Positions 12,302 through 57,288 of a DNA stretch of 64,000 nt are shown piece after piece. A program made the translations under genes and the position numbers. Source of the DNA: Spirochaetota bacterium (lineage in GTDB: Bacteria; Spirochaetota; UBA4802; JAFGDQ01); contig JAXHTS010000071.1 in the NCBI GenBank assembly GCA_034190085.1, positions 3,032-67,031 of the forward strand. The letters are read 5' to 3'. Within the stretch, counting starts at the first letter, position 1; every line of letters starts with the position of its first letter. The notes below the pieces were generated by a model. It was not told the origin of the DNA, ran no database searches, and worked only from the letters and a program-made list of their open reading frames with translations.

Positions 12302-12388
12302 AATTGCTGGTTGTGAATACAAAGATAAGATTAAATAATATAAGCCAATATATAAATTTAACTTATAAAGGGGGAAGAATATCAATAA

Positions 12389-36388: not shown

Positions 36389-38281
36389 ATGAATAAATGT
36401 TTCTATATTACTACTCCAATATATTATGTCAACGCTGAACCCCATATTGGACATGCTTATTCCACTATTTTGGCAGATTTTCTTAATAGATTCTATCAAA
36501 TGTTGGACTACACTTCGTATTTTTTAACTGGTACTGATGAACATGGCACCAAGATATTGGAGGCAGCCATACACAATAATTGCAGCGCTCAAGAATATGC
36601 GGACAGGATCAGCCAACTCTTTAGGCAGACATGGACTGATATGGATATCAGGTTTGATGATTTTATCAGAACAACAGAGGAGAGACACAAAAGGGTTGTA
36701 CACCTGATACTACAGAGGATCTATGATAACGGAGATATCTATTTTGGGAGTTATGGTGGGGATTATTGTGTCGGTTGTGAAAGATTTATTGCTGCAAAGG
36801 ATATTATTGATGGGAAGTGCCCTGAACACAATAAGGAGTTAGAGTACATTGAAGAGAATAATTACTTTTTCAAAATGAGCAGATATCAGGACTGGCTTGT
36901 TAATCATATAAAAAATACACCTGGTTTCATTAGACCTGAGAGGTATAAGAATGAGGTTTTATCTATTATAGAGGGAGATATTCTTGAGGATCTATGTATC
37001 TCCAGACCCAGATCACGCCTTGAATGGGGCATTCCCCTTCCATTTGATGATAATTATGTAACCTATGTGTGGTCTGACGCGCTGATAAACTATATAAGCG
37101 CGATTGGATATCCTGATGATGATAGATTCAGGAAATACTGGCCAGTTTCACAACATATAATTGCTAAGGATATCCTCAAACCTCATGGTATATTCTGGCC
37201 TACAATGCTTAAAGCAGCGGGTATTGAGCCATACAAACATCTCAATGTGCATGGTTACTGGAATATGGATGAGGCCAAGATGTCGAAAAGCCTTGGCAAT
37301 GTGGTGAATCCAAAGGAATTAATAAAAAAATATGGAAATGATCAGATAAGGTATTTCTTCTTAAGGGAAATGACCTTTGGATTGGATGCCAAATTTTCTG
37401 AAGAGGCGATTATTAATAGAATCAACTATGATCTGGCCAACGACCTGGGCAACCTGATAAAAAGAACATTTAATATGATAGAAAAATATTTTAATAACCG
37501 AATACCTCCCTTTTGTCCCCAATATCCTATGGGCAGGATTCAATTGTCAGAAAATCTGAAGAGTTCAATGAAGGAATATATTAAGAATGTTGAAAAATTT
37601 CAATTTAGCATTGGGCTTGAGAGGCTCTGGGAGTTTGTCAGATCCTTAAACAAATATATTGATGAGAATAAGCCGTGGGAATTGGCCAAGGATGAGAAGA
37701 GATCTGCCCTCTCTTCAACACTCCGAAACTTGCTAGAATCTATTCACAGCATCTCTATATTGCTATCGCCTGTATGTATAAACATCTCCCCAAAGATTAT
37801 CGACGCCCTGAATGCAAAAAATGCTAATAGAGACATAAATGAAATTATATCATTGAACCTACTTGAAGATAACCAGGAGATAAAGGATATTGGTGTCCTC
37901 TTCCCCCGACATATTAAAGAAAAAAAAGAGAATGTTTCAGATGTTAATGAAGGCCTAATTGATATAAGCGATTTTGAAAAAGTTGACATCAGAGTGGCAA
38001 AGATTCTCGAGGCCTCTAAAATCGAGGGATCAGATAATCTGCTTCAGCTAAAGGTTGATTCAGGCCATGACACAAGAACAATAATTGCAGGTATAGCAAA
38101 ATTTTACTTGCCAGAAAATCTTATTGACAAAAAAATACTACTCGTCGCTAATCTGAAGGTCGCTACCATCTTTAAACGCAAATCCTATGGTATGCTTTTA
38201 GCGGCCAGGAATAAAAAGGATAAAAAACCGATACTAATAGAAATTGATGAAAAAATCCCTGTTGGTGCGAGATTATCATAG
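36389..38281 (+). CDS. metG: Methionyl-tRNA synthetase with a C-terminal tRNA-binding (EMAP/Trbp111-like) domain
   Basis: HIGH motif (PHIGHAYS), KMSKS motif, Zn knuckle (CVGCERF...CPEHN) and a C-terminal OB-fold domain. Confidence 0.9.
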   Translation: MNKCFYITTPIYYVNAEPHIGHAYSTILADFLNRFYQMLDYTSYFLTGTDEHGTKILEAAIHNNCSAQEYADRISQLFRQTWTDMDIRFDDFIRTTEERHKRVVHLILQRIYDNGDIYFGSYGGDYCVGCERFIAAKDIIDGKCPEHNKELEYIEENNYFFKMSRYQDWLVNHIKNTPGFIRPERYKNEVLSIIEGDILEDLCISRPRSRLEWGIPLPFDDNYVTYVWSDALINYISAIGYPDDDRFRKYWPVSQHIIAKDILKPHGIFWPTMLKAAGIEPYKHLNVHGYWNMDEAKMSKSLGNVVNPKELIKKYGNDQIRYFFLREMTFGLDAKFSEEAIINRINYDLANDLGNLIKRTFNMIEKYFNNRIPPFCPQYPMGRIQLSENLKSSMKEYIKNVEKFQFSIGLERLWEFVRSLNKYIDENKPWELAKDEKRSALSSTLRNLLESIHSISILLSPVCINISPKIIDALNAKNANRDINEIISLNLLEDNQEIKDIGVLFPRHIKEKKENVSDVNEGLIDISDFEKVDIRVAKILEASKIEGSDNLLQLKVDSGHDTRTIIAGIAKFYLPENLIDKKILLVANLKVATIFKRKSYGMLLAARNKKDKKPILIEIDEKIPVGARLS

Positions 38282-38345
38282 ATTCAATTACTTTCTTTAA
38301 AAAATTTCCTTCTTAATACAGCAACAGAGTAGAGGGAGCAATAAA

Positions 38346-38834
38346 ATGAAAATAGGACTTATATCCGACACACACAACAACATAGACATAACTAAAAGGG
38401 CTGTTGAAGTCTTTAAAGAAAGAAACGTTGATATGGTAATTCATGGGGGTGATCTGACCTCTCCAAGGATGATAGACCTTTTCAAGGAGTTGAGTTGTAT
38501 ATTTATTCTTGGCAATGGAGATTTTGAAGTTGAATTGATAAACAAAAAATCCAGGAATCTTGGATTTGCCGCAGCTCAATACTCTTGTGATCTTAAACTA
38601 GATAATAAACGATTATTTGCGATGCATGGAAATGATGCCAAAACAATTAAAGACGTTATTCGATCAGGCGAATATGATTATATAATTAAAGGTCATACGC
38701 ATTGTTATGAAAATTACATATCCAACAATACAAGGGTAATTAATCCTGGCTCATTACAGGATGGAAAAGAAAATTTCATTGCTATTCTAAACACTGGGGA
38801 TGATGAGGTAGATAAGATTAGAATCGAGGTTTAA
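38346..38834 (+). CDS. Calcineurin-like metallophosphoesterase, YfcE/MJ0936 family
   Basis: Motifs DTHNN, GGDLTSP, GNGDFE, GHTH. Confidence 0.7.
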   Translation: MKIGLISDTHNNIDITKRAVEVFKERNVDMVIHGGDLTSPRMIDLFKELSCIFILGNGDFEVELINKKSRNLGFAAAQYSCDLKLDNKRLFAMHGNDAKTIKDVIRSGEYDYIIKGHTHCYENYISNNTRVINPGSLQDGKENFIAILNTGDDEVDKIRIEV

Positions 38835-39703
38835 CATCTATCTAAAATCTCCATTATCCTATCAAAATCATCCAGCGAATAATAACTTATCTCTATTCGT
38901 CCTCCCTCGCCAATGTGTTTTATCTCCACCTTAGTCCCAAGAATAGAAATAAGTCTATCCTCCAAAATTTTAATATGCGGGTCCTTAGATATTGATTTCC
39001 TGTTAGATCTATTCTTCTCACCCTTTTCATTCTCCACTATTCTTTCAACATCCCTTACGGATAACTTGTTTCTAATTATCTCATTGCAGAGTGGGATCTG
39101 TCTCTTTGCAGATACAGATAGTAAAACCTTTGCATGACCAATACTGATTTTTCCATCTGAGATAGCCTGTTGAATCTCATCTGGGAGGTTCAACAACCTC
39201 AGGATATTCGCAATCGTAGCCCTTTCCTTTCCCACCCTTGTGGCTATATCCTGCTGTTTCAAATTAAACCTATCAATTAAGACTCTGTAAGCTCTTGCCT
39301 CCTCAATGGGATCTAAATCCTTCCTCTGTATATTCTCAATCAAGGCAATAGTAAGGTTTTTCTCCTCCTCAGCATGGATAATAATTGATCTAATCTTATC
39401 TAAACACGCCAGCTTAGCGGCTCTGAGTCTTCTCTCTCCAGCAACAACATAGTAATCCTCTTCATTCTTCCTGACTATAATTGGTTGTATAATTCCAAAA
39501 GACTCTATGGATTCAGCCAAACCCCTTATCTCATCCTCATCAAAGTATGTTCTGGGTTGATCAGGATTAGGTTTAATTATATCAATAGGAATATCTACAA
39601 TTCTATCCCCTTCATGGAGTATATTCTCCTCAAATTCATCAACGATCGTGGTTGAACTGGATATTATCGCTCCGAGTCCCTTTCCCAAAACCCTTTTAGC
39701 CAT
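38831..39703 (-). CDS. parB: Chromosome partitioning protein ParB/Spo0J
   Basis: ParB box with the CTPase motif GERRLRA, plus an HTH. 8-bp overlap with parA. Confidence 0.85.
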
Positions 39704-40457
39704 TTCTTAATACCTCTTCAGCAAGTCTCTCATAACTTTGACTACCTACGCTCTTTCTATCATAATGACCTATCGGTTTACCGAATGATGGGGCTTCAGA
39801 GAGTTTAACATTCCTCGGAACAATTGTATTCAAAACCTTATCTCTGAAATGCTTCCTAACATCTGAGACAACCTGTTGTGAAAGATTGGTTCGCGAATCA
39901 TACATAGTAAGGATTACGCCTTCTAACCTAAGCTTTTTATTCAAATTCTCCTGCACAATTGCAATAACCTTCAATAACTGACCCAATCCCTCAAGGGCAT
40001 AGTATTCACACTGCAAAGGGATAAGAACTGAATCAGCTGCGACAAGACTGTTGATTGTTAAGATACCTAAAGAGGGCGGACAATCTATAAAAAAGATATC
40101 AAAGTCATGCTTTATCCTACTTATTGCCCTTTTTAAAATGAACTCACGATTCTTTTCATTTAAAAGTTCAATCTGTGCTCCTGAAAGATCTATATTTGAG
40201 GGAATAATATAGAGATTTTCTATTCCACTCTTTACTATGGCATCTTCTATTTGAACCTGCCCTATCAATACATCATAAATAGTGGTATCTAACTCTTTGG
40301 TGTTAATTCCAAGCCCATAACCAGCATTTGCTTGAGGATCGATGTCAATAATCAATACCCTCTGACCCTTCTCAGCCAGAAAGGCTGAAAGATTTATTGA
40401 TGTCGTCGTCTTCCCCACACCACCCTTTTGATTTGAAACAGATATTACCCTACCCAT
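39696..40457 (-). CDS. parA: Chromosome partitioning ATPase ParA/Soj
   Basis: Deviant Walker [12 protein letters not shown]. 253 aa. Confidence 0.85.
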
Positions 40458-40674
40458 TTATTATCCTTGTTGAAGTCAATTACACCTATCCTGATTTAAT
40501 CATCATCAATACAGCTCATATATGGGAAAATTTCTTCCAGTATACCCCTTCTTTTACGGAAAAAAGGGACCCAATAGGATTGGACCTCTCCCCAAATAGG
40601 CAAATTGACATCCGTCTCTTATACCTTTGGTTATGTATTAAATGCTATTAACACAATATAAGATAGGATTGCAA

Positions 40675-41877
40675 CTATTTTTGTCTTATTCTTCCGTGAA
40701 ATTTTCTAGGAGCAACCATCTTCTCAATCCTATAAATAATAAATATAACTACACAGACAAGAAGTGCTAAAAGCCCCTTTTGGTAATATGGTAGGAATCG
40801 TGAACCCCTAGCTGATAGAATTCCATAAGCTCCGGATTCAATTTTGGTGGAGGGGTATACCTTCAGGATGTGATAACCTTCTAATTCAGCATCTATATTC
40901 AAATAGAATTCCCCTTCAGAGGGATCTAAAGAAATTATTAACCTATCATCCATATCAAAAAGATCAACCTGGAAGAGACCCGCCCTGGAGTCAAAATAGA
41001 TAGTGTTCTTTCCCCTTGATAAATAAATTCTGTAGGTCCTACTGCTCTCCCATCCCCTAACGGAATCGACAATTGAACTGCTGACATCCTGTTCCCATTT
41101 GTCAGCTATATCTATTAAGTTACTAAGTATATGCCTGTATGAAATTCTGTAGATCATATACCTCAACAACTCTCTATTGTATCCCTTATTATGATAACTG
41201 GTATACAGGGCCTCTCCCTCTCCCCTCTTAAGGATTGAGATGATTGGACCAAATTTAATACCCTTTGGTGTCTCAAAGGAGCCTTCAGCAACAACCTCCG
41301 CCTCTTTAACAGACTTAACTGCAATCCATCCCTGATGAAACATATAAAGGGCTAATTTTTCATTCCTGCAAAAGCAATATAACTCATCCTTTAGCTCAAG
41401 GGTTACCCTACCAGCCATTCCCATATTCGGAAAGTCATCGAAAAATTCAAAGGGTTTTAAAGAACCCTGAAGAAATTCATATGAATAACCAGAGAAATAC
41501 CCCACCCCCCCATCATGAATAAAAGATTTAATATTATTACAAATTTTTTCTCTATTTACTTCAGAAATGTCGTTTTTCAATAAAACTGCCTGAACCTTAG
41601 TCCCTCTTGAAAGAATATTCACGTTAGTCTCGATTGGCTTATACATCCCACAGGGAAAAAAAATTGCCCTATATTTATTATATATCTCCTCATTCTCAAG
41701 ATCATGACATTTTATCAAATGATATGGAATTCCATATCTTCTTAAAGCCCTCTCAACCCTATCAAATTTACCTTTAACTACCGCAATCCCTTTGATATCA
41801 TTTGTAGCAAAAAGTTTATTTAGGGGAAAAAATAACAGAAGGTGGGAAATAATAATTAAATAATGTAACAATTTCAC
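40675..41877 (-). CDS. Exported hypothetical protein with a C-terminal TM anchor and basic tail (400 aa)
   Basis: Signal peptide MKLLHYLIIISHLLLFFPLNKLFA. C-terminal hydrophobic helix GLLALLVCVVIFIIY followed by RIEKMVAPRKFHGRIRQK. An internal HDGGVGYFSGYS motif is faintly reminiscent of GATase1/ThuA-like folds; that is speculative. 6-bp gap to the upstream gene. Confidence 0.4.
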   Translation of the reverse strand: MKLLHYLIIISHLLLFFPLNKLFATNDIKGIAVVKGKFDRVERALRRYGIPYHLIKCHDLENEEIYNKYRAIFFPCGMYKPIETNVNILSRGTKVQAVLLKNDISEVNREKICNNIKSFIHDGGVGYFSGYSYEFLQGSLKPFEFFDDFPNMGMAGRVTLELKDELYCFCRNEKLALYMFHQGWIAVKSVKEAEVVAEGSFETPKGIKFGPIISILKRGEGEALYTSYHNKGYNRELLRYMIYRISYRHILSNLIDIADKWEQDVSSSIVDSVRGWESSRTYRIYLSRGKNTIYFDSRAGLFQVDLFDMDDRLIISLDPSEGEFYLNIDAELEGYHILKVYPSTKIESGAYGILSARGSRFLPYYQKGLLALLVCVVIFIIYRIEKMVAPRKFHGRIRQK

Positions 41878-41883
41878 GATCGG

Positions 41884-43827
41884 TTATATATTAATCTCCT
41901 TTATCTTTCTTAAAATCTCTCTCCTCTCATCAAGCCTTGATAAGATGCCTTCATCAATACATTCATTGGCAAGCTGATATGAAAAAGCGATTATGTGAAT
42001 AATGATGCCTCCCTTCAAAGAATTGCTAAGCACGCTCTTTCCTATAAGTTGATCCGAGAGCAGGCGCATATCCTTTAATCCTATTACACGACAATCAGAA
42101 AAAGGGATAGGTCGATCCCCCTCAACCCCTTCCCTCTCCGCTACTTTTACATCCATTGGCGTTCGTATAAGATCAGTATTTGATATTTCACTACCCTTCT
42201 CTTTCCATCGTCTGTGTATATCATATAACCTCTGCAACTCAGCTCCAATATTAAAGAAGAGATCCCCTATAAGCAATATTAACCTTTCAACCTGAGCCAT
42301 TGAAGGGATTTTCCCCTTTAGAATTTTTAAAACCTCTTCCCTGCCTACTGCCATCCTGGGATTATTGCTTCTAAATAAGTGCATCTCCCCTAAAAGTTCA
42401 GAAAGCCGCTTCATCTCATTTGAAAAATATTGAGCATTAAAGATCATTCCTTCATGATGATTCTGATCCTTATCCTCGAAAGTAATAATTGATCCATTAA
42501 AAAAGGGGACAAAGGAATTATTAAAAAAATTTATACATTCATCAAGAAAGGTAAGAAAATCCCTCTCATAAACAACACTATAATCCTTCTGTTTCCTATT
42601 ATCAATTTTCCACTGATCCTCAAAGGCCCGATAAAGAATATTCTGACCCTCAATTTTTAATTTAATGAGTGAATGAAGTTCATTATAGGGGATCAACTCC
42701 TCCTTAAGCTTTCCAATATGCCTTTCCTTTCTGGATTCCTCATCTTTACCAACTGTCTTTAAAAAATCAATACTATAATCCCAAACCTCACCATTTATTT
42801 GCGGTGCGGTAATATTAAAATAGTCTGTAATATCTTTGATTTCAACATCCTTCAGGAAGATAAGCGCCTCAATCAATATAATCAATAACTCAGATAAAGA
42901 GCTAATCCCATATCTTAAACGAAGCTGATTTGATAAAACACTCTCTGAATCAATTCTTGTGGGTAAAAAAGATCGTAAAATCATCATATACTCATAAATC
43001 TTCTTCTCCTTATCAAGATTTCTCTTCTCCTTTTCCCTCTTCAAACTCTCAGAATCAGTTTGATCAATCTTCTCCTTCAATAAATCATCTGACAATCTCA
43101 ATTTATTCTCAACAAGCAGAATAATCTGTTCCTTTGTCTCGATATCTATCGTTAAAAAAGAAAAAAAATGTACGATATAACTCTTTAACTCCAATTCAAA
43201 TGAGCGCCTATCCATCCACTTCAATTCATCAAAACTGTACTTGACAATAGGGGTTTCCATCATCCATCTTCTAAATATCCGCAAATAATTAAAATGTGTA
43301 GCATCCTCGATTGATTTGTCCTTGAGAATCTCCATTAAAATAGCAGGCAATCTGGATAATATCATTTCCTGATAAGATATAATCCACCGAATTATCTTTA
43401 ACAATCTTCTGTTGGGGATTAATCTCCTCTTTATCCCAATACCCAATCTATTATTTGTACGAATAAGATACCTCTTCCTAAATATTTTGAGTTTTTTATA
43501 CCTCCAATAAATATCCTTGATAAATTGATTAGTATCTAAGGGATCAGATTTATTCACGTCAGAAGAAGCAGTATCCTGTCTATATTCACCCCTTGGGGAT
43601 TTAGTATCCATTCTATCACTACCCTTACTACTCTTTGATTTATCATCACAAGACTTAATAAGATCTACAATGGCGCTATATCTCTCACCCGAGGGTATCG
43701 TCGTGTTCTTGATTAAAGACCGTACTATCTCCATTTTATCAGATGGGATATCCTTACTCGCAAGAAGAGCCTTTGCCCTCCTCTCTATCTTCTCATTTTC
43801 CTTATCACTTAACATATTTATATCCAT
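41884..43827 (-). CDS. Hypothetical cytoplasmic protein (647 aa), no recognisable domain
   Basis: Long ORF, very basic/helical. It is the first gene of an apparent four-gene minus-strand unit ending in parA-parB. Confidence 0.4.
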   Translation of the reverse strand: MDINMLSDKENEKIERRAKALLASKDIPSDKMEIVRSLIKNTTIPSGERYSAIVDLIKSCDDKSKSSKGSDRMDTKSPRGEYRQDTASSDVNKSDPLDTNQFIKDIYWRYKKLKIFRKRYLIRTNNRLGIGIKRRLIPNRRLLKIIRWIISYQEMILSRLPAILMEILKDKSIEDATHFNYLRIFRRWMMETPIVKYSFDELKWMDRRSFELELKSYIVHFFSFLTIDIETKEQIILLVENKLRLSDDLLKEKIDQTDSESLKREKEKRNLDKEKKIYEYMMILRSFLPTRIDSESVLSNQLRLRYGISSLSELLIILIEALIFLKDVEIKDITDYFNITAPQINGEVWDYSIDFLKTVGKDEESRKERHIGKLKEELIPYNELHSLIKLKIEGQNILYRAFEDQWKIDNRKQKDYSVVYERDFLTFLDECINFFNNSFVPFFNGSIITFEDKDQNHHEGMIFNAQYFSNEMKRLSELLGEMHLFRSNNPRMAVGREEVLKILKGKIPSMAQVERLILLIGDLFFNIGAELQRLYDIHRRWKEKGSEISNTDLIRTPMDVKVAEREGVEGDRPIPFSDCRVIGLKDMRLLSDQLIGKSVLSNSLKGGIIIHIIAFSYQLANECIDEGILSRLDERREILRKIKEINI

Positions 43828-44272
43828 AATTATGAATATTCAGGCACCATCTTATTATACCCTCAAAAGCCCATAGTGTAGGTATTACAGAACACTTAAA
43901 GAGCCTGAATCATACTATAGGGTTCTTTTCATCCCTTTTATGTGGAAATTGTATCCAAATTTGAAACTTTAATCCCTAAAGGTGGTCATATGCAGCCCAA
44001 AGGTACCGACTAAAATCAATTTATTATAACAAATACCATGACTATGTCCATTAGTTTTTACTATACGCACAACAGAATTATGTCAGTTTACAATTTCTCA
44101 ATTACACATCCTTTTAATTAAAAAAAGATAGAACTTAACCATAGTGCTGATAATCCAATAATAACAGGCATTATATCAAGGGAATAATCAATAAAAGATA
44201 AAATGAGTTGACTAGGTTATACCACTGATCTTCTAATATAATTAAGTCTAATCAACATTAACAGGAGAGAAT

Positions 44273-44812
44273 ATGCCTGAGGTTGGGATAATTCTTGGTA
44301 GCGATTCTGATTTGCCAAAGATAAAAAGGAGCTTTGAGTTGCTGGATGAATTTAGTGTTAGTTACGAAATCACTATCTCATCTGCGCATAGAACACCGGA
44401 TAGAACTAAAAAATGGGTTGAATCTGCAGAGGAACGAGGTATTAGGGTAATAATCGCTGCTGCTGGAGGTGCAGCTCACCTACCTGGCGTTGTCGCAGCT
44501 CATACGATCCTCCCAGTAATTGGCATTCCAATAGAGACGAAGATAGCAGGCGGTATGGATTCAATCCTATCAATACTCCAAATGCCTTCAGGCATACCGG
44601 TTGCTACTATGCCATCTGGCAAGGCGGGGGGAGAGAATGCTGCACTATTAGCCATAAGCATTCTTGCGTTGATCAATGATCAATACAACTCAAAACTAAT
44701 AGAATTTAGGAGACGGATGAAGCAAAGGATTAACGATAAAAATGACAGATTGAACTCAATCGGCTATAGAGAATATCTCAGGGACACAGAGGGGGGAAAT
44801 GAACGAAAATAG
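44273..44812 (+). CDS. purE: N5-carboxyaminoimidazole ribonucleotide mutase
   Basis: GSDSDLP ... AAAGGAAHLPGVVAAHT motifs. Confidence 0.85.
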   Translation: MPEVGIILGSDSDLPKIKRSFELLDEFSVSYEITISSAHRTPDRTKKWVESAEERGIRVIIAAAGGAAHLPGVVAAHTILPVIGIPIETKIAGGMDSILSILQMPSGIPVATMPSGKAGGENAALLAISILALINDQYNSKLIEFRRRMKQRINDKNDRLNSIGYREYLRDTEGGNERK

Positions 44813-46367
44813 GATTGAGAATATTTCCACAGATAGAGTTCTCATCCTCGATTTTGGCTCACAGTATACACAGCTAATAGCGAGAAGGATCAGGGAATTG
44901 GGAGTATATGCTGAGATAGTACCCTATCTACATTCAACTGATTTAATCAAAGATGATAAGCCGGGTGCTATTATTCTTTCAGGAGGGCCATCCTCCCTCT
45001 ATGAAAGGGATGCCCCACAGATAAAAGATGATATATTCAGGATAGATATACCAATACTGGGAATATGTTATGGATTTTATACAATTGTTAATGCCTTCAA
45101 TGGAGGGATAGAGTCATCAAATCATAAAGAATATGGCAGAACCACCATCAAAATTCAGGGGAAATCCGCTCTGTTCAATGGGCTGAATAAAAATGAGATC
45201 GTCTGGATGAGTCATGGCGACAGGGTTGTAGCCATTCCGAAAGAATTTAATGTTATTGCACAATCAGATAATTCCATGATCGCAGCCATTGAGAATAATA
45301 AAAAACGAATATATGGAGTTCAATTCCATCCAGAGGTTTTTCATACAGTTCATGGTACAGAGATAATAAAAAACTTCATTCTCACCATATGCGGATTACG
45401 CCCTTCCTGGTCGATGAAATCATTTATCTCATCATCCATTAAATCGATAAAGGAAAGGGTAAAGGATGGAAGTGTGTTGTTAGGTCTCTCTGGAGGGGTT
45501 GACTCATCAGTGACTGCAATATTACTACAGAAAGCAATTGGGGACAAGCTCACTTGCGTCTTTGTAAATAACGGACTACTTCGTAAAGATGAGCAGAAAA
45601 TTGTAATCAATAGATTCCAGAAGCACCTTAAATTAAATTTAATATGTGTTGATGCGTCAAAAAGATTCCTATCTAAGCTAAAGGGAGTAGAAGACCCTGA
45701 AAAGAAGAGGAGAATAATAGGTAGGGAGTTCGTAAAGGTATTTATTAAGGAGGCAAAAAAGATCGGGAAATTCGACTTTCTGGCTCAAGGGACCCTCTAT
45801 CCTGATGTAATCGAGTCGGTTTCAACAAAGGGACCTTCGGATACAATTAAAAGCCATCATAATAGGGCACCTGATATACTTAAACTTATTAAAAATGGAA
45901 AGGTAATTGAACCCCTGAAGGATCTCTTTAAGGATGAGGTGAGAATTCTCGGGAAAGAGCTTAAGATGCCAGATGAGCTAATATATAGACAACCCTTTCC
46001 AGGACCTGGCCTTGCTATTCGAATTATAGGAGAGGTTAATCAAAGAAGAATATCAATACTACAGGAGGCTGATGATATACTGGTTGAAGAGATAAAGGGG
46101 GCGGATCTCTATGATAAACTATGGCAATCCTTTGCCGTCCTGTTGCCTGTAAGGTCTGTTGGAGTTATGGGGGATAGGAGAACATATGACAACGTAATTG
46201 CCCTAAGATGTGTCACATCCGTTGATGCAATGACCGCTGACTGGGCATTCCTTCCTGAAGAATTGCTTCAGAGGATATCTAATAGAATTATAAATGAGGT
46301 ACACGGGATAAACAGGGTGGTTTACGATATCTCTTCAAAACCCCCAAGCACAATCGAGTGGGAATAA
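44799..46367 (+). CDS. guaA: GMP synthase (glutamine-hydrolysing)
   Basis: GATase-1 domain followed by an ATP-PPase domain with SGGVDSSV and a conserved C-terminal dimerisation domain. Overlaps purE by 14 bp. Confidence 0.9.
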   Translation: MNENRIENISTDRVLILDFGSQYTQLIARRIRELGVYAEIVPYLHSTDLIKDDKPGAIILSGGPSSLYERDAPQIKDDIFRIDIPILGICYGFYTIVNAFNGGIESSNHKEYGRTTIKIQGKSALFNGLNKNEIVWMSHGDRVVAIPKEFNVIAQSDNSMIAAIENNKKRIYGVQFHPEVFHTVHGTEIIKNFILTICGLRPSWSMKSFISSSIKSIKERVKDGSVLLGLSGGVDSSVTAILLQKAIGDKLTCVFVNNGLLRKDEQKIVINRFQKHLKLNLICVDASKRFLSKLKGVEDPEKKRRIIGREFVKVFIKEAKKIGKFDFLAQGTLYPDVIESVSTKGPSDTIKSHHNRAPDILKLIKNGKVIEPLKDLFKDEVRILGKELKMPDELIYRQPFPGPGLAIRIIGEVNQRRISILQEADDILVEEIKGADLYDKLWQSFAVLLPVRSVGVMGDRRTYDNVIALRCVTSVDAMTADWAFLPEELLQRISNRIINEVHGINRVVYDISSKPPSTIEWE

Positions 46368-49440: not shown

Positions 49441-50541
49441 ATGATGGATTTTAGTGAAACCACAAAAGAACTAATCGCGACTTTAAAAAAATATAATAGC
49501 TTGCTTGTTTGTATAAAAGGCTCACCCGATCCGGATGCTATTGCATCATCACTTGCATTAAAAATAATAAGCGACAAACATGGAATTAAAACAGATATCA
49601 TTGCGTTTACAGAGACCTCCCTGCCACAGAATAAAGCAATAATTGATGAGTTTCATATACCAATACATTTTGAAAAATCAATCTCACATATCCTAAATCA
49701 CGATGCTTATGCAGTATTAGATCATCAATCTGCATATATTAAGGATATACCATCAACAATCCCCTGCGCAATCCATATCGATCATCATGAAATCGTCAAT
49801 GATTCAGTAAATGTTGATTTTAAAATCATAATGGAGGAAGTCGGCTCAGTCAGTACAATTATGGCACTATTTTTACATGAGTTAGAGATTGAACTCGATG
49901 AATGCCAACTAAAAGCTGTATCAACCGCACTCCTCTATGGAATACAGACAGACACTGATAACCTAAAACATGCAAATGAACTTGATTATGAGGCTATTAA
50001 ATATCTTTCTCGAAATTCAGATAGTGAAATCATCAATCGTATTACTGGCATTCCCCTTACAAGAAAGATGATCGAATTCCTTGGCGATGCCATCAAGAAC
50101 AAGTACATCTATAAGGATTGGCTTATTACAGGAATAGGATTTATCGATGAATCCTACAGGGATAATATTGCAATAATTGCAGATTTTCTACTCAACCGGG
50201 AGGATGTAACAACCGTAATCGTTTTTGCAGGTATTAGAAAGAATAAAAAAAGGGGATTAACTCTAGATGCTTCAATCAGAACAGAGGATGAAAATATCGA
50301 TTTAAATGAACTGATAAAAAAAATCTCCTCAGAGGGTGGAGCGAGAAGATATAAGGGTGCCTATCAAATAGATATGGACTATTTCACTAATTGTCCAGAT
50401 CAAAACCTTCTTTGGACAATAATTAACAATACTACTATTGAGGTGTTTAAAAAACAGAGAGATATCATTTATCTTATAGAATTAAAGGGTTTCTTTAATA
50501 AATATAAAAATAGAATCAAAAAATTTATATATGGCAAATAA
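49441..50541 (+). CDS. nrnA: DHH/DHHA1 phosphoesterase, NrnA-like
   Basis: DHH motif (IHIDHHE) and a C-terminal DHHA1 region with GGG. Confidence 0.65.
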   Translation: MMDFSETTKELIATLKKYNSLLVCIKGSPDPDAIASSLALKIISDKHGIKTDIIAFTETSLPQNKAIIDEFHIPIHFEKSISHILNHDAYAVLDHQSAYIKDIPSTIPCAIHIDHHEIVNDSVNVDFKIIMEEVGSVSTIMALFLHELEIELDECQLKAVSTALLYGIQTDTDNLKHANELDYEAIKYLSRNSDSEIINRITGIPLTRKMIEFLGDAIKNKYIYKDWLITGIGFIDESYRDNIAIIADFLLNREDVTTVIVFAGIRKNKKRGLTLDASIRTEDENIDLNELIKKISSEGGARRYKGAYQIDMDYFTNCPDQNLLWTIINNTTIEVFKKQRDIIYLIELKGFFNKYKNRIKKFIYGK

Positions 50542-50569: not shown

Positions 50570-53500
50570 TCAAAATAGTAGGGTGAGACTGAATCCAATC
50601 TCATAGGAGCGTATCTCCCTATTTATACCATTAGTGTCTCTATTCCTGAATCTCTCCAGTGCCCAACGCGCTGAAAGCCCCCCTTGAATATTCTTATGAA
50701 GATCCATTGTCAGTTTCCCGATTATCAGATGCTGGTCGTATGGCTCAGGAGAAACAGTATCCGAATAATCATATCTATTGAGTAAAAGAGAATATTCCAA
50801 ACTTATGATTGGCAATGATTCAAGTTCATATAAATTGGAGAATAGATTATATATCAATTGAACATCGGTTTCATATAAAATTGAAAAATTATATCCCCGC
50901 TCCCTCTCCTTGAATGAATCTATTATTTGCATATTAGTCACATAGATATCATCACTTTTCGACCTCTTTGATTCGTCTGTAGAAATATACTCCCTTCTTT
51001 TTCTTAGCCTGTAATCCATTCCAATGTTTAAGCTCAGACTTGTTCTGTCCCATTTAAATATTATTCCCATGTTTGGGGAATGGGTATCCTCTTCAATATT
51101 TGAAGTTATGATCATATTCCTACTAAAATCATACCCGGCATTCACACTTGCTGAATGATATGGCATCCCTATTACATTGGGCCTAAAAAACCAAAAATTG
51201 AAAATCTGCATAAGATCAATAATTATGTTTAGGTTATCGCTCACTGTGACTACCTGCTGAGGGGTTCCGTATATATTTTGTCGTTCGCTAACCTGATTTA
51301 AGCCCATTCCAAAATTCAGAACAATCCACCGGAAATCAAGAGTAGAGCTTACACCAATGTTATCAATCAATCTCAGATTGTTATTATAGTCTATGGCTGA
51401 TGATCCATTGGTATAATTTATCTCCCTGTTAAACTTTCTGTATGCATAATCTCTACCATTTGCAAAGTTTCCTCGCCCCATAAAAGGATACCATGGGGGG
51501 AAGTCAAAAGGATTCATACAAATGTCAGCAAATCCATTGTATACCCTCCTTATACCATAATCCTCATCAAGGGAGGATGTCCCCTCCCCCTCGTATGGAA
51601 CATCTATCTCTTGAAAGAATATAGATCGTGAATAACTAATATTTAAATTTCGAAAAAACTCCATCCCTTTTATCTTGTTGAAAGCGAAGGGCAAATCGAG
51701 TCGATTAGAGACTAGCGTGTTTGCATCTTTGGATCTAATATATTTATCTGATATTATCCTCTCACTATCATCGTAATCACTAAAATTATCCTCAATGTAG
51801 TTGAAGACCAATCTCAACTCTGGTGAGATCAGGGTTAGCTTCCTTAAACCAAAACTTAGTCCTATCTCTTTATCCCTTCCAACGAATTTAAAGTCCTTAT
51901 TGTATACAAAGGGGAGATGAAATCCACCATCAACCTCCGACAAAATCTCCATATCATTCTCATCCATCCTCCCCTTCAATTCAACGATCTCATGTGTGCT
52001 ACTATTAACAGATGGTTTGAAGAATAAAAATGAGTTTTGATAATCTGCGCGAATTTGAGCCCCACCCTTTTGCCTCTTCTCCACCTCGTTGAGTGAGATG
52101 AACTGCTCAAGCTCTCCCAGCCCCTTCTCAACAGAATTTCGTCCTATGTCTTCCTCCTGAAAAAATGCATCCATAACAATTGTAGTTGTTATGTTTCCCC
52201 AGAGTTTACTATTGATCCTATTTTGTAAAACCAAGGTTGGTGTGTAAACCTGGTTCTGGGTGTGTGCGTTGATCCTGAAATCCGATATATATCTCTCTTT
52301 CAGATTATCATATATATCCTGTTTGTATATCAACTTTATACTGGGGAAGATGTATTTATCAGATACAAAATCAGACTCAAATAAGAGACTCTTCTTCTCT
52401 GTCTCTCCTCTACTCTCTTCATGCACCTCTTCATTGAAGCTATCAGTTATTGAATCCTCAACTGAAAAATTTAATTGAACCCTCCAGTTTGGCAGAATGT
52501 TAATAGATGAAAAGACCTCATTGCTCTTCTCCCTAATATCATCCATTGTCTTCCCTATGGTGTTGAAGTTGTACCCATGCCCCTTTCCTATATACTTGAT
52601 AATAAAATCTGATAACACCGGTGTGCCGATATCGGATATATACAATGGTCTCTTAAAGGAAATCTTCCCCTCATACCAGTAAGCGCTATCCCGCAGCATT
52701 TCTGGTTCACTGACATACATGTCGTTTACCCAGAATTTTCCGCTATTTACGCCACTAATCCCAATTTCAATAAATGAGATCCTTTTCATATCTGGATTAC
52801 CGGCAATATTACTAATCTCGACATCACCATTAGATCCGCTCTTAAGCTTCAATCTTATCTCCCTCCATATGCCAATATAATCCATTGAAAATCCATACTC
52901 ATAATAATCATCCTCTGATGATCCGATCTTTAGGGTTATTGAATCACCAATTGAAAACTCCCTGAAGTTAAACCATATATTCATTGTCTTGTAAAATCTG
53001 ATGTCCATCGGACGTAAGAACTTTCTGGAAGCAGAACCCGTTGAATTGTCATACTCAATCTGGAGCGCTGTCTCCCTCTCTTTTGATAATTCTACATCAT
53101 TTTTATCCCCATATAGAGATTCATAATTATTATTAACCAAAGATATATATGACTCAGCCCTATAATCGGCATCATTTAAAGTATCAACCTTAGTAATACG
53201 AAGAGATCCACTGTCGTCCCTCCAACTCGAAGATACAAATCGAATGCTGTTAATATAAATAGTACCCTTTACCGCGCTATTCCTCAAAAGATAGAGCCTT
53301 AATGACTCCACCTGTTTAAGGATTTCGATCTGACTGTCATCGATTCTATCTCTATCCAGATAAATTCTAATATTTTCCCAATCAGTATTGGATCCATCAA
53401 TGGATATTGCAGAGGATGGAGTTGTGAATACCCCTGGGAGGGTGATTACATGTTCATCTTTATCAAGTATCCCATTCCTATTGAGGTCTTCACTATTGAG

Positions 53501-56215
53501 CGCGCCATCTCCCATGGTTATCTGACTAAGCTTAGGGCCTGTGCCAATTATCGTTTGAACATTTCCATCAAATTGATACCCGATATCCTCCTCTATCCCA
53601 GCGGAGGGATCATAATCGAGAAATCCATTATTATTGACATCCTCAGTATCGAGCAGATCATCATCATCGGAATCCTCGTTTATCCTTCCGATGTCAATGC
53701 AGAAATCAACTTCACCACTAACACCCTCTGCGCGATACCATATCTCTACATATTGCAATCCTGAAAAATCAACAGCCATAGCAGAGGGCATTGGGGTTAC
53801 AATTGGAATGCAATCACCAGTAGAGAAATCGAAATTCAAAACCAGGGACCTCTGCGTTTCAAGCGGTTGGATTGAATCAGGTATATGTCCAATCGCTACA
53901 TTATAAGGACCTGGTTTTATTGAATATGAGACGCTATAGGGGATAAAGTCAATCCCCCTTAGTGTATCAGGATGAAATGGATCTCTATAGTAGTAATAAT
54001 ACAAAATTCCCCTATTGTCTTGAGCTAAACCGATAGGCATCGATGAAAGCCACCAGTCCTTCTCGGATAGAGAGAGGGGTACAATCTCATCAGTTGCCTC
54101 CATGCTATCGATTAGTGCTTTGCCAAAGGTATTGATTTTTTTGTAGCTTCTAGCATATTCCGCATAACAATCTATTTCCACTGGAACTGATTTGGGCTTT
54201 ATGCCAGTAATATTATTTATGAATCTCTTTAATCTTGCTTCTCCAAGATGTAGTGACGTGTCTCCCTCAAAAACAAGGGTCTGTTCTGGCTCACTTCCGA
54301 TATTAGGAATTACATCATCCCCGGATTCCCTTGTATAAAGGAGAGTACCCCCAACGTCAAGACTCCTATTTACCCTATAATCACCACGTATTCCGCCACT
54401 AAAGGACTTAGACTGTGAATTAAAGGGTAGATACTCGTATTTTACCTCGATCTCTGTCTTTGGGCCAATTAGCGGATTATTGGGATCAATGAATTCTAAA
54501 AAACCTGAAGTATAATCGAGTGAGTATAATGAGGGTGCTATTTCTAAGCCGTTTATTCGTATCCGAACACTCTCTGGAATTATATTAAAATGCTTTAACT
54601 GAAAGCTTCTGGCCTCCCTGTAATAATCAATTCTAATCTTATAAATAGATGAAAGATAAGCATTCGTCTGTTGCTTTTCAGAATAGATCACATCTGCATC
54701 ATTCATATCCAAGAGCTGCCGGAAGGGCTCCCTAAGGTGGAACTCTACTATACCATTGGTATAATCCACAGAATATTTCCCCAACTTAGCAACATCACTC
54801 TTTGGCAAAAGTGTATTTTCTCTATAAAAAAGTATTCTGAAATTATCCTCCAGAAGCTGTCTGTCCCCAATATTATAGAATGATCGTATCTCATATATAT
54901 CACGATTGATCCTGCCATCACCATTGACATCATCACCATGAGTCTCATCTAGGGAGTATCCATATTTGATGAATACAAAGTTCTTGCCTGAAAACATCCC
55001 ACCAGGGTGATTTGAACTACCTGGAGATAGAGCGCATGGATCTGCGGTAGATCGGTCTTTAAGCCAATATACTGCAAAAATATTCGCATTCTCTGGAATA
55101 TTTTTAATAAAAGTAATTAAGCCAGTGGCATAATTTATCTTATAATCTATGCCGGAAATCAATTTTGAATAATAACAATTATCTAAGGTGAGTCTAATGG
55201 CGTTATAATTATTCTGCGGATTCTTATCATCAATGTATATTTCAAAACCAGATGGTTCAATATTTACAGGATAGAGAGTATAAATTTCTGGATTTGACGG
55301 TGATGACGTGACCACGACAGAATTTAATACCTCTCCATCAGAAGGGATAGATATCCTATTATCATACCTAATAAATGGTTCGATCTGATAGTATATGTTT
55401 CTTATGTATTGATATTCTGATAGCCTGATATAACTCGGAGAAGCATTGCCACGAAATATCTCAATCTCTGTCTCACCCCTTGATACGCTGCCAAAGGCCC
55501 TGATTCTCAAGTTCTCCTTCTTTAAGGCTACATCAATCCCAATACCCTTCATTGAGGTTTCATCAAAAGCAACATACTTTGACTTCTCAAGATTTATATC
55601 AATCTCACCGGCATTTATCTCCCTAATAACCTCTTCCTCACGAATAGCCCGATATCGCATCACATAGTGATTGTCGCTCTTATCACTATCATGGTCAATA
55701 TAAACGGTAAGGCGTCTACCGATATCGCCTTCCATATGAAGTTGCAGTTCATGCTCTGCATTGAATCCATCCTTAATAACCCTTGAAACTGGTTTGTCCT
55801 CATCATATCTACGGTAACTATCCTTTGTAAATTTCGATTTGCCATATAGCAGATCAATCTTAAGCGAACCATAAGAGTTGATATTCACCTCACCCCTCTT
55901 CTCAATGCTGAATCCCTCATCAAAAAGGTTTTCTGTAATAGGTTTATATTTTATTGAGGTGACATATTTCTCCCAATCCCCCTCAAGATATACAAATGGA
56001 TGAGTGATGTTCTCGTTTATTTCATTAATAAATATATTCTCTTTTTGAAGAGAGATGCCTACTTCTCCTCCTTCTGAGTTTGACTCAATATATCTTAGCA
56101 GGATGTCTTTGAAACCTCTTTCCACATAAGTTACTTTTGAAAAGGCAACAGCCAATAAGCATGTTGTCCCCAAATATATTAATAACTTAATACAAAGGGA
56201 CACCCTTATTATCAT
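50570..56215 (-). CDS. Giant secreted outer-membrane protein (1881 aa) with C-terminal beta-barrel signature; SprA-like candidate
   Basis: N-terminal signal peptide. Two D-x-N-x-N-G-x-x-D Ca-binding-type loops (DVNNNGFLDYD, DLNRNGILDKD). Extensive beta-rich Y/F/N/S composition. Terminal ...IGFSLTLLF with C-terminal Phe. Confidence 0.5.
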   Translation of the reverse strand: MIIRVSLCIKLLIYLGTTCLLAVAFSKVTYVERGFKDILLRYIESNSEGGEVGISLQKENIFINEINENITHPFVYLEGDWEKYVTSIKYKPITENLFDEGFSIEKRGEVNINSYGSLKIDLLYGKSKFTKDSYRRYDEDKPVSRVIKDGFNAEHELQLHMEGDIGRRLTVYIDHDSDKSDNHYVMRYRAIREEEVIREINAGEIDINLEKSKYVAFDETSMKGIGIDVALKKENLRIRAFGSVSRGETEIEIFRGNASPSYIRLSEYQYIRNIYYQIEPFIRYDNRISIPSDGEVLNSVVVTSSPSNPEIYTLYPVNIEPSGFEIYIDDKNPQNNYNAIRLTLDNCYYSKLISGIDYKINYATGLITFIKNIPENANIFAVYWLKDRSTADPCALSPGSSNHPGGMFSGKNFVFIKYGYSLDETHGDDVNGDGRINRDIYEIRSFYNIGDRQLLEDNFRILFYRENTLLPKSDVAKLGKYSVDYTNGIVEFHLREPFRQLLDMNDADVIYSEKQQTNAYLSSIYKIRIDYYREARSFQLKHFNIIPESVRIRINGLEIAPSLYSLDYTSGFLEFIDPNNPLIGPKTEIEVKYEYLPFNSQSKSFSGGIRGDYRVNRSLDVGGTLLYTRESGDDVIPNIGSEPEQTLVFEGDTSLHLGEARLKRFINNITGIKPKSVPVEIDCYAEYARSYKKINTFGKALIDSMEATDEIVPLSLSEKDWWLSSMPIGLAQDNRGILYYYYYRDPFHPDTLRGIDFIPYSVSYSIKPGPYNVAIGHIPDSIQPLETQRSLVLNFDFSTGDCIPIVTPMPSAMAVDFSGLQYVEIWYRAEGVSGEVDFCIDIGRINEDSDDDDLLDTEDVNNNGFLDYDPSAGIEEDIGYQFDGNVQTIIGTGPKLSQITMGDGALNSEDLNRNGILDKDEHVITLPGVFTTPSSAISIDGSNTDWENIRIYLDRDRIDDSQIEILKQVESLRLYLLRNSAVKGTIYINSIRFVSSSWRDDSGSLRITKVDTLNDADYRAESYISLVNNNYESLYGDKNDVELSKERETALQIEYDNSTGSASRKFLRPMDIRFYKTMNIWFNFREFSIGDSITLKIGSSEDDYYEYGFSMDYIGIWREIRLKLKSGSNGDVEISNIAGNPDMKRISFIEIGISGVNSGKFWVNDMYVSEPEMLRDSAYWYEGKISFKRPLYISDIGTPVLSDFIIKYIGKGHGYNFNTIGKTMDDIREKSNEVFSSINILPNWRVQLNFSVEDSITDSFNEEVHEESRGETEKKSLLFESDFVSDKYIFPSIKLIYKQDIYDNLKERYISDFRINAHTQNQVYTPTLVLQNRINSKLWGNITTTIVMDAFFQEEDIGRNSVEKGLGELEQFISLNEVEKRQKGGAQIRADYQNSFLFFKPSVNSSTHEIVELKGRMDENDMEILSEVDGGFHLPFVYNKDFKFVGRDKEIGLSFGLRKLTLISPELRLVFNYIEDNFSDYDDSERIISDKYIRSKDANTLVSNRLDLPFAFNKIKGMEFFRNLNISYSRSIFFQEIDVPYEGEGTSSLDEDYGIRRVYNGFADICMNPFDFPPWYPFMGRGNFANGRDYAYRKFNREINYTNGSSAIDYNNNLRLIDNIGVSSTLDFRWIVLNFGMGLNQVSERQNIYGTPQQVVTVSDNLNIIIDLMQIFNFWFFRPNVIGMPYHSASVNAGYDFSRNMIITSNIEEDTHSPNMGIIFKWDRTSLSLNIGMDYRLRKRREYISTDESKRSKSDDIYVTNMQIIDSFKERERGYNFSILYETDVQLIYNLFSNLYELESLPIISLEYSLLLNRYDYSDTVSPEPYDQHLIIGKLTMDLHKNIQGGLSARWALERFRNRDTNGINREIRSYEIGFSLTLLF

Positions 56216-56292: not shown

Positions 56293-57288
56293 TTACCAGA
56301 CTCTGCTCATATAGGGATAAGGATTTGATGCGGCATGACCGACCCTAATCTCATAGTGACAATGATTACCGGTTGCTGCTCCGGTTTGTCCCACATAGGC
56401 TATTATTGTGCCCTTCTTCACTCGATCTCCCTTTTTCACTATTATCTTAGAACAGTGGCCATACATCGACTGAAATCCATACTTATGTTTTATTCTTACT
56501 AAATACCCGTAACCGCTTCCCCATCCAGCTGAAACCACCACACCTGGCGCTGTTGCTCTTATCGCTGTGCCTGGTGGAGCGGCAATATCTATCCCAGTAT
56601 GAAAGTCTCTTCCAAAACCAAAAGGGGATCGTCGCCATCCGAATAGTGAAGTAATATGCCCCCTGTTTGGAACAATTGACGGCATATCACCTATTACCTT
56701 GCTTCTAACATCAACAAAGGTTTTAATAGTTTTTATGATATTTGTTGTGCTGACAATATCTTTTTGTAAACCTGCTAACGTAAATATTTCTTCAGGTAGT
56801 ATATTATTAAGGCCCTCAAGTGTATTCAAATCACCCGCATCAGATAAAACACTATTCCATACCTTACCAATATCAATATCACCAACAGTCATTTTATATA
56901 AGTCGCTCACTTCTGGTTTAATATTCTTTATCATCTCATCTATTTTGTTTGTATGCTTTTCAAATCTCAACAAGTGAGATCTTATATCCATGTAATCGGA
57001 CAACAATCTCTGTTCTTCACGCTCGATAGCAGCATTTTTTATGATTGCATAGGTTGAAGTTGATATAACGATCACAAATAGTATCAAGAAAAAGGATAAT
57101 GTAAATTTTGATATTTGAAAATTAAATATTCTCTTCTGGTTATGTGGTATAAACATAACGGTCATCTTTTCATGACCCTTTTCCAAATAACTATCCCATC
57201 TCCTATTGAGTCTCCTCTTATATACATAGTAAGACTCTGAAACCCATTTCTTAATTCTATTTCGATACTTCTTTATCATAAATCTCAT
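56293..57288 (-). CDS. Membrane-anchored M23/LytM-family metallopeptidase (EnvC/NlpD-like)
   Basis: N-terminal TM and a coiled-coil segment. C-terminal M23 domain with HTGIDIAAPPGTAIRA ... GHCSKI ... HCHYE. Sits 77 bp upstream of the giant gene on the same strand. Confidence 0.8.
   Translation of the reverse strand: MRFMIKKYRNRIKKWVSESYYVYKRRLNRRWDSYLEKGHEKMTVMFIPHNQKRIFNFQISKFTLSFFLILFVIVISTSTYAIIKNAAIEREEQRLLSDYMDIRSHLLRFEKHTNKIDEMIKNIKPEVSDLYKMTVGDIDIGKVWNSVLSDAGDLNTLEGLNNILPEEIFTLAGLQKDIVSTTNIIKTIKTFVDVRSKVIGDMPSIVPNRGHITSLFGWRRSPFGFGRDFHTGIDIAAPPGTAIRATAPGVVVSAGWGSGYGYLVRIKHKYGFQSMYGHCSKIIVKKGDRVKKGTIIAYVGQTGAATGNHCHYEIRVGHAASNPYPYMSRVW

Follow-up and report, generated by a model that had tools for sequence, protein, structure and literature searches.

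In other phyla, rsmG and mnmG widely occupy a conserved place upstream of parAB without a functional link to it, and on this precedent a position beside parAB says little about what a gene does. Among the polar landmark proteins, which hold ParA or the origin, Caulobacter has TipN and PopZ; the Vibrio gene hubP is not known to lie at a par locus. The HubP protein of Vibrio combines a periplasmic domain with one transmembrane (TM) helix and a cytoplasmic partner-binding region, and it binds ParA1 (PMC8789113). Among spirochaetes, the lineage-restricted ParZ of Borreliaceae took over control of ParA within a parAZ operon, and it is a DNA-binding centromere protein with a ParB-like N-terminal LG(R/K)GL peptide, the motif defined in the same work as ParA-activating (PMC9712426).

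Against this background we analysed a 64-kb window (the whole stretch of 64,000 nucleotides) from an uncultured Spirochaetota bacterium, in which genes for a 647-aa and a 400-aa protein (hereafter A647 and B400) precede parA and parB. The gene order, spacing and common strand given in the initial annotation were confirmed by the coordinates, with the locus containing the following features:

44023..44050, minus strand: putative promoter-like site (TGGACA, 16 nt, TG-TATAAT; 11/12 matches), from a consensus scan alone
41884..43827, minus strand: A647 ORF, 647 aa, ATG start
40675..41877, minus strand: B400 ORF, 400 aa, GTG start, 6 bp past the A647 stop
40458-40674, minus strand: 217-bp spacer from B400 to parA
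40565..40593, minus strand: weak hairpin resembling a terminator (about -9 kcal/mol), with TTTTT after it, within that spacer
39696..40457, minus strand: parA, 253 aa, Soj-type Walker ATPase
38831..39703, minus strand: parB, 290 aa, with ParB_N, HTH_ParB and ParB_C domains and an N-terminal LGKGL

The neighbouring parA and parB are canonical chromosomal ParABS genes whose reading frames overlap by 8 bp, encoding a Soj-type ParA (Pfam AAA_31, E 1.7e-72) and a ParB with the full domain set (ParB_N 6e-29, HTH_ParB 5e-37, ParB_C 1e-12) and LGKGL at residues 6-10. The promoter-like site lies about 195 nt upstream of the A647 ORF, inside a divergent spacer shared with purE. The hairpin of the 217-bp spacer is not kept in relatives, and a conserved terminator between B400 and parA was ruled out as a general feature, being seen in few loci only. 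An Rfam scan of positions 38000-45000 returned nothing relevant. Nearby parS sites, raised in the initial annotation, did not materialise: the canonical sequence (TGTTNCACGTGAAACA) gave no match at ≤3 mismatches across the 64-kb window and none at ≤2 mismatches in related par loci, and the window's two perfect 16-bp palindromes agree with a rough chance expectation of about 2. The parS of this lineage may lie elsewhere or be divergent in sequence.

Evaluating the distribution of both proteins, we found 47 clusters of full-length homologues for A647 and 37 for B400, at 29-56% identity and all from metagenome-assembled genomes of uncultured Spirochaetota (GC 37% to 58%), such that both are real genes rather than chance ORFs. 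Among 1.84 billion proteins the A647 family has 103 representatives, about 47 of them full-length, and a profile search of this set added two distant full-length relatives (~620 aa) located away from par genes, while the B400 profile recovered the same tight family only (weakest match E 1e-110, with an empty twilight zone). Neither protein matched PADLOC or PHROGs. A mobile or plasmid origin of the par locus was ruled out, as tblastn against plasmid records matched neither protein; GC around the locus is in line with that of the remaining window. Both are uncharacterised families lacking a curated model, which bears out their proposed status as candidates for new families.

The AlphaFold (AF2) models of the two proteins are confident (pLDDT 86.5 for A647 and 87.9 for B400). 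A647 is modelled as a cytoplasmic, mostly helical protein, agreeing with the second word of its earlier description as "basic helical"; the first word holds only mildly for the whole chain (pI 8.8), with a net charge of +16 in one segment. Its N-terminal part divides as follows:

43657..43806, minus strand: A647 residues 8-57, conserved three-helix bundle (alignment and AF2; block pLDDT about 88-91)
43528..43650, minus strand: A647 residues 60-100, poorly conserved, low-confidence linker (pLDDT < 50 at 66-91)
43378..43527, minus strand: A647 residues 101-150, strongly basic (+16), conserved beta-hairpin (alignment, AF2, charge)

The bundle has the consensus KKIERRAKALLL.KDIP..KM.IVRSL and the hairpin FKKRYLIH.NNRLGIG..KRLIP, with R135, L136 and P138 invariant. 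As first described, A647 has no recognisable domain (0 Pfam and 0 NCBIfam matches at E ≤ 1), and it matched no PDB sequence profile; Foldseek found no PDB fold relative below E 0.43, with TM-scores ≤ 0.13. A647 is thus a coherent, full-length new family that connects to no described family and to no solved PDB fold. The RLGIG within the hairpin (residues 127-131), modelled as its turn and with its glycines separated by Ile, Phe or Leu, was ruled out as a ParB-like ParA-activating peptide, since the basic residue is absent and the motif is not terminal; the A647 N-terminus itself carries no LG(R/K)GL-type peptide, and B400 ends in a different motif, [RK][RK][FY]SGR, at its C-terminus. The NCBI annotation of A647 begins at Met5 (643 aa).

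B400 is predicted to be a bitopic inner-membrane protein, in which a signal peptide leads into a periplasmic ectodomain and a C-terminal TM helix connects this to a basic tail in the cytoplasm:

41806..41877, minus strand: B400 residues 1-24, N-terminal hydrophobic export signal
41092..41796, minus strand: B400 residues ~28-262, alpha/beta domain with a class-I glutamine-amidotransferase-like fold (ThuA-like, GH42 middle domain, GIFT)
40807..41088, minus strand: B400 residues ~264-357, beta-sandwich resembling PPC/collagen-binding and GOLD domains
40714..40785, minus strand: B400 residues 365-388, C-terminal TM helix
40678..40713, minus strand: B400 residues 389-400, basic cytoplasmic tail (APRKFHGRIRQK)

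The family agrees with this topology, which the initial annotation had read from one sequence: among 45 full-length homologues, 38 possess the N-terminal hydrophobic segment, 43 the C-terminal TM helix and 34 the tail motif ([RK][RK][FY]SGR, with Gly395 in 28/31 sequences), and 13 of the 45 carry a lipobox-like Cys within the signal region. The tail motif is retained where A647 adjoins, including in a clade without adjacent parAB, and is degenerate in some members that have parAB and lack A647. An alternative NCBI call of 347 aa for B400 was ruled out, its TTG start at codon 54 cutting away family-conserved residues. Whether either protein belongs to a well-known family received a divided answer, positive for B400 at the level of fold (GATase1/ThuA-like plus beta-sandwich) and negative for A647. 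The B400 N-terminal domain has the three-layer alpha/beta flavodoxin-like fold of the GATase1/ThuA-like superfamily in its model, while searches of Pfam and NCBIfam (GATase, ThuA, DUF4159 and others) gave nothing at E ≤ 1 save a chance-level DUF3801 (E 0.12), and PDB sequence profiles gave chance-level matches only (E ≥ 0.087).

To evaluate whether A647 and B400 belong together, we considered their spacing, which across 41 loci runs from -4 to 116 bp around a median of -1 bp, with overlapping stop and start codons or a gap ≤ 22 bp in 38 of them. Judged from this spacing, the two genes are translationally coupled, and through this coupling their products probably work as a pair. The pair also persists in one clade where the adjacency to parAB is gone (L046, L073, L075, L080 and L096). 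The reading we favour, at somewhat under an even chance, is that A647 and B400 form a lineage-specific two-gene operon of uncultured Leptospirales-like Spirochaetota whose products act jointly at the inner membrane. Under such a model, B400 would be exported, its ThuA/GATase1-like domain and beta-sandwich forming a periplasmic, non-catalytic binding or scaffold module, held by the single C-terminal TM helix with its conserved basic tail of ~12 residues toward the cytoplasm. A647, synthesised in step with B400 via the overlapping stop and start codons, would be the cytoplasmic partner, probably docked to the membrane through the B400 tail, its own very basic hairpin segment, or both, such that the two might form a physical complex. 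The proximity of the pair to parAB would then represent ancestral gene order in the lineage, with ParABS, canonical and usually preceded by its own spacer, presumably functioning independently of it.

The pair is not always linked to parAB. Related genomes present five gene orders (A647-B400-parAB, B400-parAB, A647-B400 without parAB, A647-parAB, and A647 alone), and whether orthologues keep the linkage had a mixed answer: same-strand placement directly upstream of parAB recurs in the window and about 50 related loci, whereas A647 lacks B400 or parAB downstream in 21 of 41 species-level loci (18 of these with >1 kb of downstream sequence), and at clade level the parAB-less pairs named above depart from it entirely. 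Between B400 and parA, relatives have gaps of 1 to 1123 bp (median 162 bp); a gene on the opposite strand intervenes in L045-type loci, and L047 possesses a strong terminator (-30.7 kcal/mol). By these three features parAB appears separable from the pair, and the initial annotation's description of the genes as co-transcribed with parA-parB is weakened, co-transcription in the window, with its 217-bp spacer and weak hairpin, being unproven on the sequence. Each gene order is monophyletic, so that two or three rearrangement events suffice to explain them, and the junction from parB through a metallophosphoesterase gene to metG is broken about as often. From gene order, the linkage to parAB looks ancestral but eroding, and its conservation should be read with caution as two or three ancestral rearrangements, not as many independent associations.

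The same distribution bears on a rival explanation, in which the two proteins are a split polar landmark or tether for ParABS, with B400 anchoring to a periplasmic or cell-wall feature and A647 serving as a cytoplasmic adaptor, so that together they would capture ParA or the ParB-origin complex at the membrane, in the manner of HubP or TipN but from two polypeptides. Beyond the recurrent upstream placement, three observations favour it, and each counts against our preferred reading: of three B400 clades, two keep the gene adjacent to parAB even though its flanks have altered (both flanks changed in L045 and L047); ten loci have B400-parA gaps ≤ 20 bp, implying that the genes are transcribed together in these; and A647 stands 41 bp upstream of parA without B400 in L036. 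Adding to these, A647 of a sister clade follows a gene for a periplasmic coiled-coil protein with an OmpA (peptidoglycan-binding) domain, the B400 topology is analogous to that of HubP (PMC8789113), and ParZ shows that the par locus of a spirochaete can include a lineage-specific partner (PMC9712426). This support is, however, positional only and reflects few independent events; about half of the A647 species are unlinked, one clade has the pair without parAB, ParB retains its own ParA-activating motif, no canonical parS turned up in the window or related par loci, and our searches revealed no sequence or fold likeness to HubP, TipN, PopZ or DivIVA. Furthermore, B400 is almost wholly periplasmic, and its ~12 cytoplasmic residues limit any direct tethering role. 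We consider the tether unlikely, and with it a two-piece, envelope-spanning landmark that would position the ParABS-segregated origin in long, thin spirochaetes by coupling A647 to ParA or ParB, which we rate equally low.

Less likely again is an enzymatic role, by which B400 would be a periplasmic hydrolase or transferase acting through Ser129 on an envelope polymer, with A647 as a regulator, a chaperone or an unrelated co-expressed protein. Many enzymes, and also accessory domains of glycoside hydrolases, figure among its fold neighbours, and conserved polar residues are present (D39 in 30/31 sequences, S129 and S132 in 29/31 each, E83 in 28/31, and R239, R244 and E277 in 31/31); in the secondary structure of the model, the near-invariant S129 lies at a strand-helix junction, such that a catalytic role may be possible. 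Against this, no catalytic family model was matched, and the best fold matches (ThuA-like proteins, GH42 middle domains and GIFT domains) are non-catalytic to our knowledge. The 31 sequences contain neither a Cys-His-Glu triad nor any invariant Cys or His: C76, placed in the PGG-equivalent loop by a positional mapping that draws on secondary structure rather than superposition, is Cys in 22/31 and Ser in 9/31, and H181 is His in 27/31 and Tyr in 4/31. An active glutamine amidotransferase was ruled out for want of the conserved triad. We infer that the ectodomain is non-catalytic.

Least likely of all, A647 and B400 could be unrelated neighbours without a shared function, as lineage-specific genes in a slowly rearranging block, a reading favoured by A647 standing alone in many genomes, by at least 11 loci with B400 and no adjoining A647, and by L029 and L045, probably one genome in which the two genes lie apart (which also counts against the favoured reading and means that the two are not obligatorily co-encoded), but opposed by the tight spacing in 38 of 41 loci and by the intact pair in the clade that parted from parAB.

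Returning to the inner-membrane two-protein module, if the pair is a lineage-specific envelope module only, the gain would be modest, namely two new families for uncultured spirochaetes; B400 would carry the non-catalytic GATase1/ThuA-like fold over to a periplasmic protein anchored in the membrane, and A647 would add a confidently predicted helical architecture of 650 residues without a solved relative. If contact with ParAB were true instead, the pair would be the first membrane tether encoded in a par locus, representing a new class of chromosome tether, and the second case after Borrelia ParZ of spirochaete partition rewired by lineage-specific proteins, bearing on origin positioning in very long cells.

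Placed beside known systems, B400 shares its fold with the ThuA-like/GATase1 superfamily (PDB 4jqs, 1t0b and 3rht, and the GH42 beta-galactosidase middle domain 4ucf), yet it is only 9-16% identical to these fold matches and, unlike them, is exported, membrane-anchored and fused to a beta-sandwich and C-terminal TM helix, with the triad absent and none of Pfam, NCBIfam or the PDB giving a sequence match. GldG of gliding bacteria has an extracytoplasmic domain between N-terminal and C-terminal membrane segments, as does B400. The fold likeness extends to GIFT-domain proteins (GldG, IFT52 and OST48; the domain is named in PMC9582644), but B400 is much shorter than GldG and has no ABC_transp_aux (PF09822) match, and its neighbours are A647 and parA, with no gldA/gldF-type ABC-transporter genes nearby in the window or the loci examined. 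With rsmG/mnmG (gidB/gidA) the pair has in common its relative place, strand and conservation by descent directly upstream of parA-parB, whereas the proteins are unrelated and matched no GidA or GidB model. ParZ differs in that the genes for A647 and B400 precede parA, the B400 protein is periplasmic, LGKGL is retained in this ParB, and the A647 hairpin is hydrophobic where the catalytic Arg/Lys would be expected. Lastly, B400 possesses the periplasmic domain and TM helix of a HubP-type architecture but little cytoplasmic sequence, and A647 could by analogy supply the missing cytoplasmic region, such that the pair could copy HubP as two proteins beside parAB; HubP itself has a LysM periplasmic domain and acidic cytoplasmic repeats, in contrast to the ThuA-like ectodomain and the helical A647 with its basic segment found here.

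We evaluated the region from 38831 to 44050, where four consecutive genes lie on the minus strand; the arrangement and the features of the two upstream proteins agree with the initial annotation.

41884-43827 (-), A647, a 647-aa ORF, first in transcription order
40675-41877 (-), B400, a 400-aa ORF starting with GTG, 6 bp after A647
40565-40593, weak hairpin with T5 in the B400-parA spacer (-9 kcal/mol)
39696-40457 (-), parA, separated from B400 by a 217-bp spacer
38831-39703 (-), parB, last of the four
44023-44050, best promoter-like site (11/12 matches, consensus scan), upstream of A647

Both partition proteins are canonical by Pfam/NCBIfam model search, ParA matching AAA_31 at 1.7e-72 and ParB matching ParB_N, HTH_ParB and ParB_C, with the ParA-activating LG(R/K)GL motif (PMC9712426) present at the ParB start. 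Local GC equals that of the remaining window. Canonical parS (TGTTNCACGTGAAACA), which the initial annotation had suggested seeking nearby, was absent at ≤3 mismatches throughout the 64-kb window and at ≤2 mismatches across about 50 related par loci (scan of L001-L092), the sole match in that scan being L032:1181, in a locus with no parA or parB detected. The centromere of this lineage may be a different sequence or may be located elsewhere.

The window also holds an SMC homologue about 35 kb from parAB (917 aa, SMC_N 2.9e-70, 4048-6801, -), a tandem pair of paralogues of ~700 aa each, containing both 4Fe-4S dicluster domains and CCG cysteine-rich domains (10217-14506, +) and followed by a membrane H+-pyrophosphatase gene, and a very large uncharacterised 1881-aa ORF (50570-56215, -; no Pfam match at E ≤ 1e-5) with a Peptidase_M23 gene next to it (56293-57288). 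A 366-aa ORF (49441-50541, +) has no Pfam match at 1e-5, carries a DHH-like 'HIDHH' motif and may be a divergent DHH-family phosphoesterase.

Across related loci the A647 and B400 genes are tightly paired, with a median gap of -1 bp (range -4 to 116, n=41) and common ATGA-type stop/start overlaps, which together indicate translational coupling. The B400-to-parA gap is more variable (median 162 bp, range 1-1123, n=52), measuring ≤20 bp in 10 loci and about 760-1120 bp in 13. In L045, the one wide-gap locus with gene calls, it is filled by an opposite-strand 188-aa gene without a Pfam match (L045:7221-7787, -), and the other wide gaps could hold a similar insertion; the gap in L047 contains a strong terminator (-30.7 kcal/mol). 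Because the window's own spacer has only a weak hairpin, the consensus scan listed no minus-strand sigma-70-like site inside it, and the best site lies upstream of A647, transcriptional read-through into parAB is plausible. In the initial annotation's description, co-transcription is the one element that is inferred.

Both families are real and lineage-restricted. Homologues of A647 (47 clusters, 29-56% identity, nearly all full-length) and B400 (37 clusters, 35-54% identity) are all annotated 'hypothetical protein', and their named sources are all uncultured Spirochaetota or Spirochaetes MAGs. Alignment columns average 50% identity in A647 and 44% in B400, and host GC ranges from 37% to 58%, a spread indicating that both families have long been present in this lineage. 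Neither protein matched Pfam or NCBIfam models at E ≤ 1, bearing out the reading of A647 as having no recognisable domain, and neither matched PADLOC, PHROGs or 72,556 plasmid records. The B400 profile search returned 47 proteins (weakest E 1e-110) with an empty twilight zone, i.e., no marginal relatives. For A647, reading all 1.84 billion cluster representatives gave 103 proteins, of which about 47 are full-length, as well as two more remote relatives, each about 620 aa long (E 2e-5 and 1e-4), that align with A647 at an hhalign probability of 95% over about 150 C-terminal residues.

L093:7001-8860 and L094:7001-8872, distant A647-like proteins of 619 and 623 aa

One of these genes sits between PRA-PH and HisF genes on a Leptospira-type contig (DUF1577 gene nearby) and the other ahead of a competence gene, with no par genes in the vicinity of either.

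The AlphaFold2 model of B400 is confident (pLDDT 87.9, pTM 0.82).

Residues 2-15, signal-like helix
Residues ~28-262, alpha/beta domain
Residues ~264-357, eight-strand beta-sandwich
Residues 365-388, TM helix
C-terminal to the TM helix, 12-residue basic tail

The topology proposed from the sequence is seen in this model and recurs among 45 full-length homologues, with an N-terminal hydrophobic segment in 38 (13 with a lipobox-like Cys), a C-terminal TM in 43 and a [RK][RK][FY]SGR-type tail in 34, so that B400 is bitopic and almost entirely periplasmic. We rejected the public NCBI annotation (P0048, 347 aa; TTG start at codon 54), since it deletes the signal peptide and family-conserved residues 28-53; the GTG at 41877 is therefore preferred and agrees with the homologues. 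No Cys or His is invariant among 31 sequences (C76 is Ser in 9, H181 Tyr in 4), which rules out a classical amidotransferase. B400 is a periplasmic, membrane-anchored protein with a non-catalytic-looking ThuA-like fold.

A647 is cytoplasmic and without a solved relative, and its AlphaFold2 model is also confident (pLDDT 86.5, pTM 0.60).

Residues 8-57, conserved N-terminal three-helix bundle
Residues ~60-100, disordered linker
After the linker, highly conserved basic beta-hairpin FKKRYLIH.NNRLGIG..KRLIP
Remaining about 500 residues, helices and small beta elements

Its description as basic holds for residues 101-150 (net +16), but overall the protein is only mildly basic (pI 8.8).

We scored neighbours by tblastn at the 41 A647 loci that a scan of one genome per GTDB species had yielded. 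The full A647-B400-ParA-ParB order was found in 17, usually with metallophosphoesterase, MetG and PSP1 next on the opposite strand, which is also the window's layout; in one further locus A647-B400 runs off the contig end, in another (L012) A647 itself does so, and L036, from a deep-branching genome, has A647-ParA-ParB with a 41-bp gap and without B400 (L036:4166-7771). Linkage recurs in many relatives, but 21 of the 41 have neither B400 nor ParAB downstream (>1 kb of downstream sequence in 18 of these). Linked loci form a single clade in the neighbour-joining tree. Seven unlinked loci share the order coiled-coil lipoprotein (~230 aa), signal-peptide coiled-coil OmpA-domain protein (~350 aa), A647 and MatE transporter (L002:6078-7812, L022:6176-7930 and five similar), so that in this sister clade A647 has a different envelope-protein neighbour.

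Viewed from B400 (45 metagenome loci plus 3 look-ups), a same-strand ParA follows in 33 of the 37 loci with a visible downstream region, A647 being absent upstream in at least 11 of those 33 (e.g., L045 and L047; also L095), while four loci carry A647-B400 without parAB and with fliM following on the other strand (L046, L073, L075 and L080; also L096). The B400-parAB locus L045 and the lone-A647 locus L029 come from the same sample (GC 57.7% and 57.8%, tetranucleotide correlation 0.96) and are probably one genome with A647 and B400 at separate sites. The B400 tree has three clades with one arrangement each (A647-B400-parAB, A647-B400 without parAB, B400-parAB without A647), so two or three rearrangements suffice for all orders. 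The parB/metallophosphoesterase junction has broken with about the same frequency. The parAB adjacency looks ancestral, and in some loci it is operonic; however, it has eroded roughly as fast as the gene order around it.

We tentatively favour, at somewhat less than an even chance, an envelope module that lies beside parAB by descent. Most economically, A647 and B400 would form a two-protein inner-membrane module, with A647 connected to B400 through the latter's conserved cytoplasmic tail and TM helix. The tail motif is kept in the clade with A647 but without parAB and has degenerated (...SRLR, ...TRLWR) in certain members with parAB but without A647, a small piece of evidence favouring tail-A647 over tail-ParA coupling. 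The rsmG/mnmG-parAB linkage, widely conserved in other phyla and functionally unrelated, cautions against inferring function from position beside parAB.

A split tether for ParABS formed by A647 and B400 is unlikely; its architecture would be comparable to HubP (PMC8789113), and lineage-specific par partners have precedent (PMC9712426). That B400 is a periplasmic enzyme seems quite improbable, and that A647 and B400 are unrelated neighbours slightly more so.

There is so far no sign of a new kind of system, and interest in the pair would rise sharply if either protein interacted with ParA or ParB. A647 is an orphan family whose confidently predicted structure is unmatched. B400 is a new sequence family whose fold belongs to a known superfamily, although its export and membrane anchoring are unusual.
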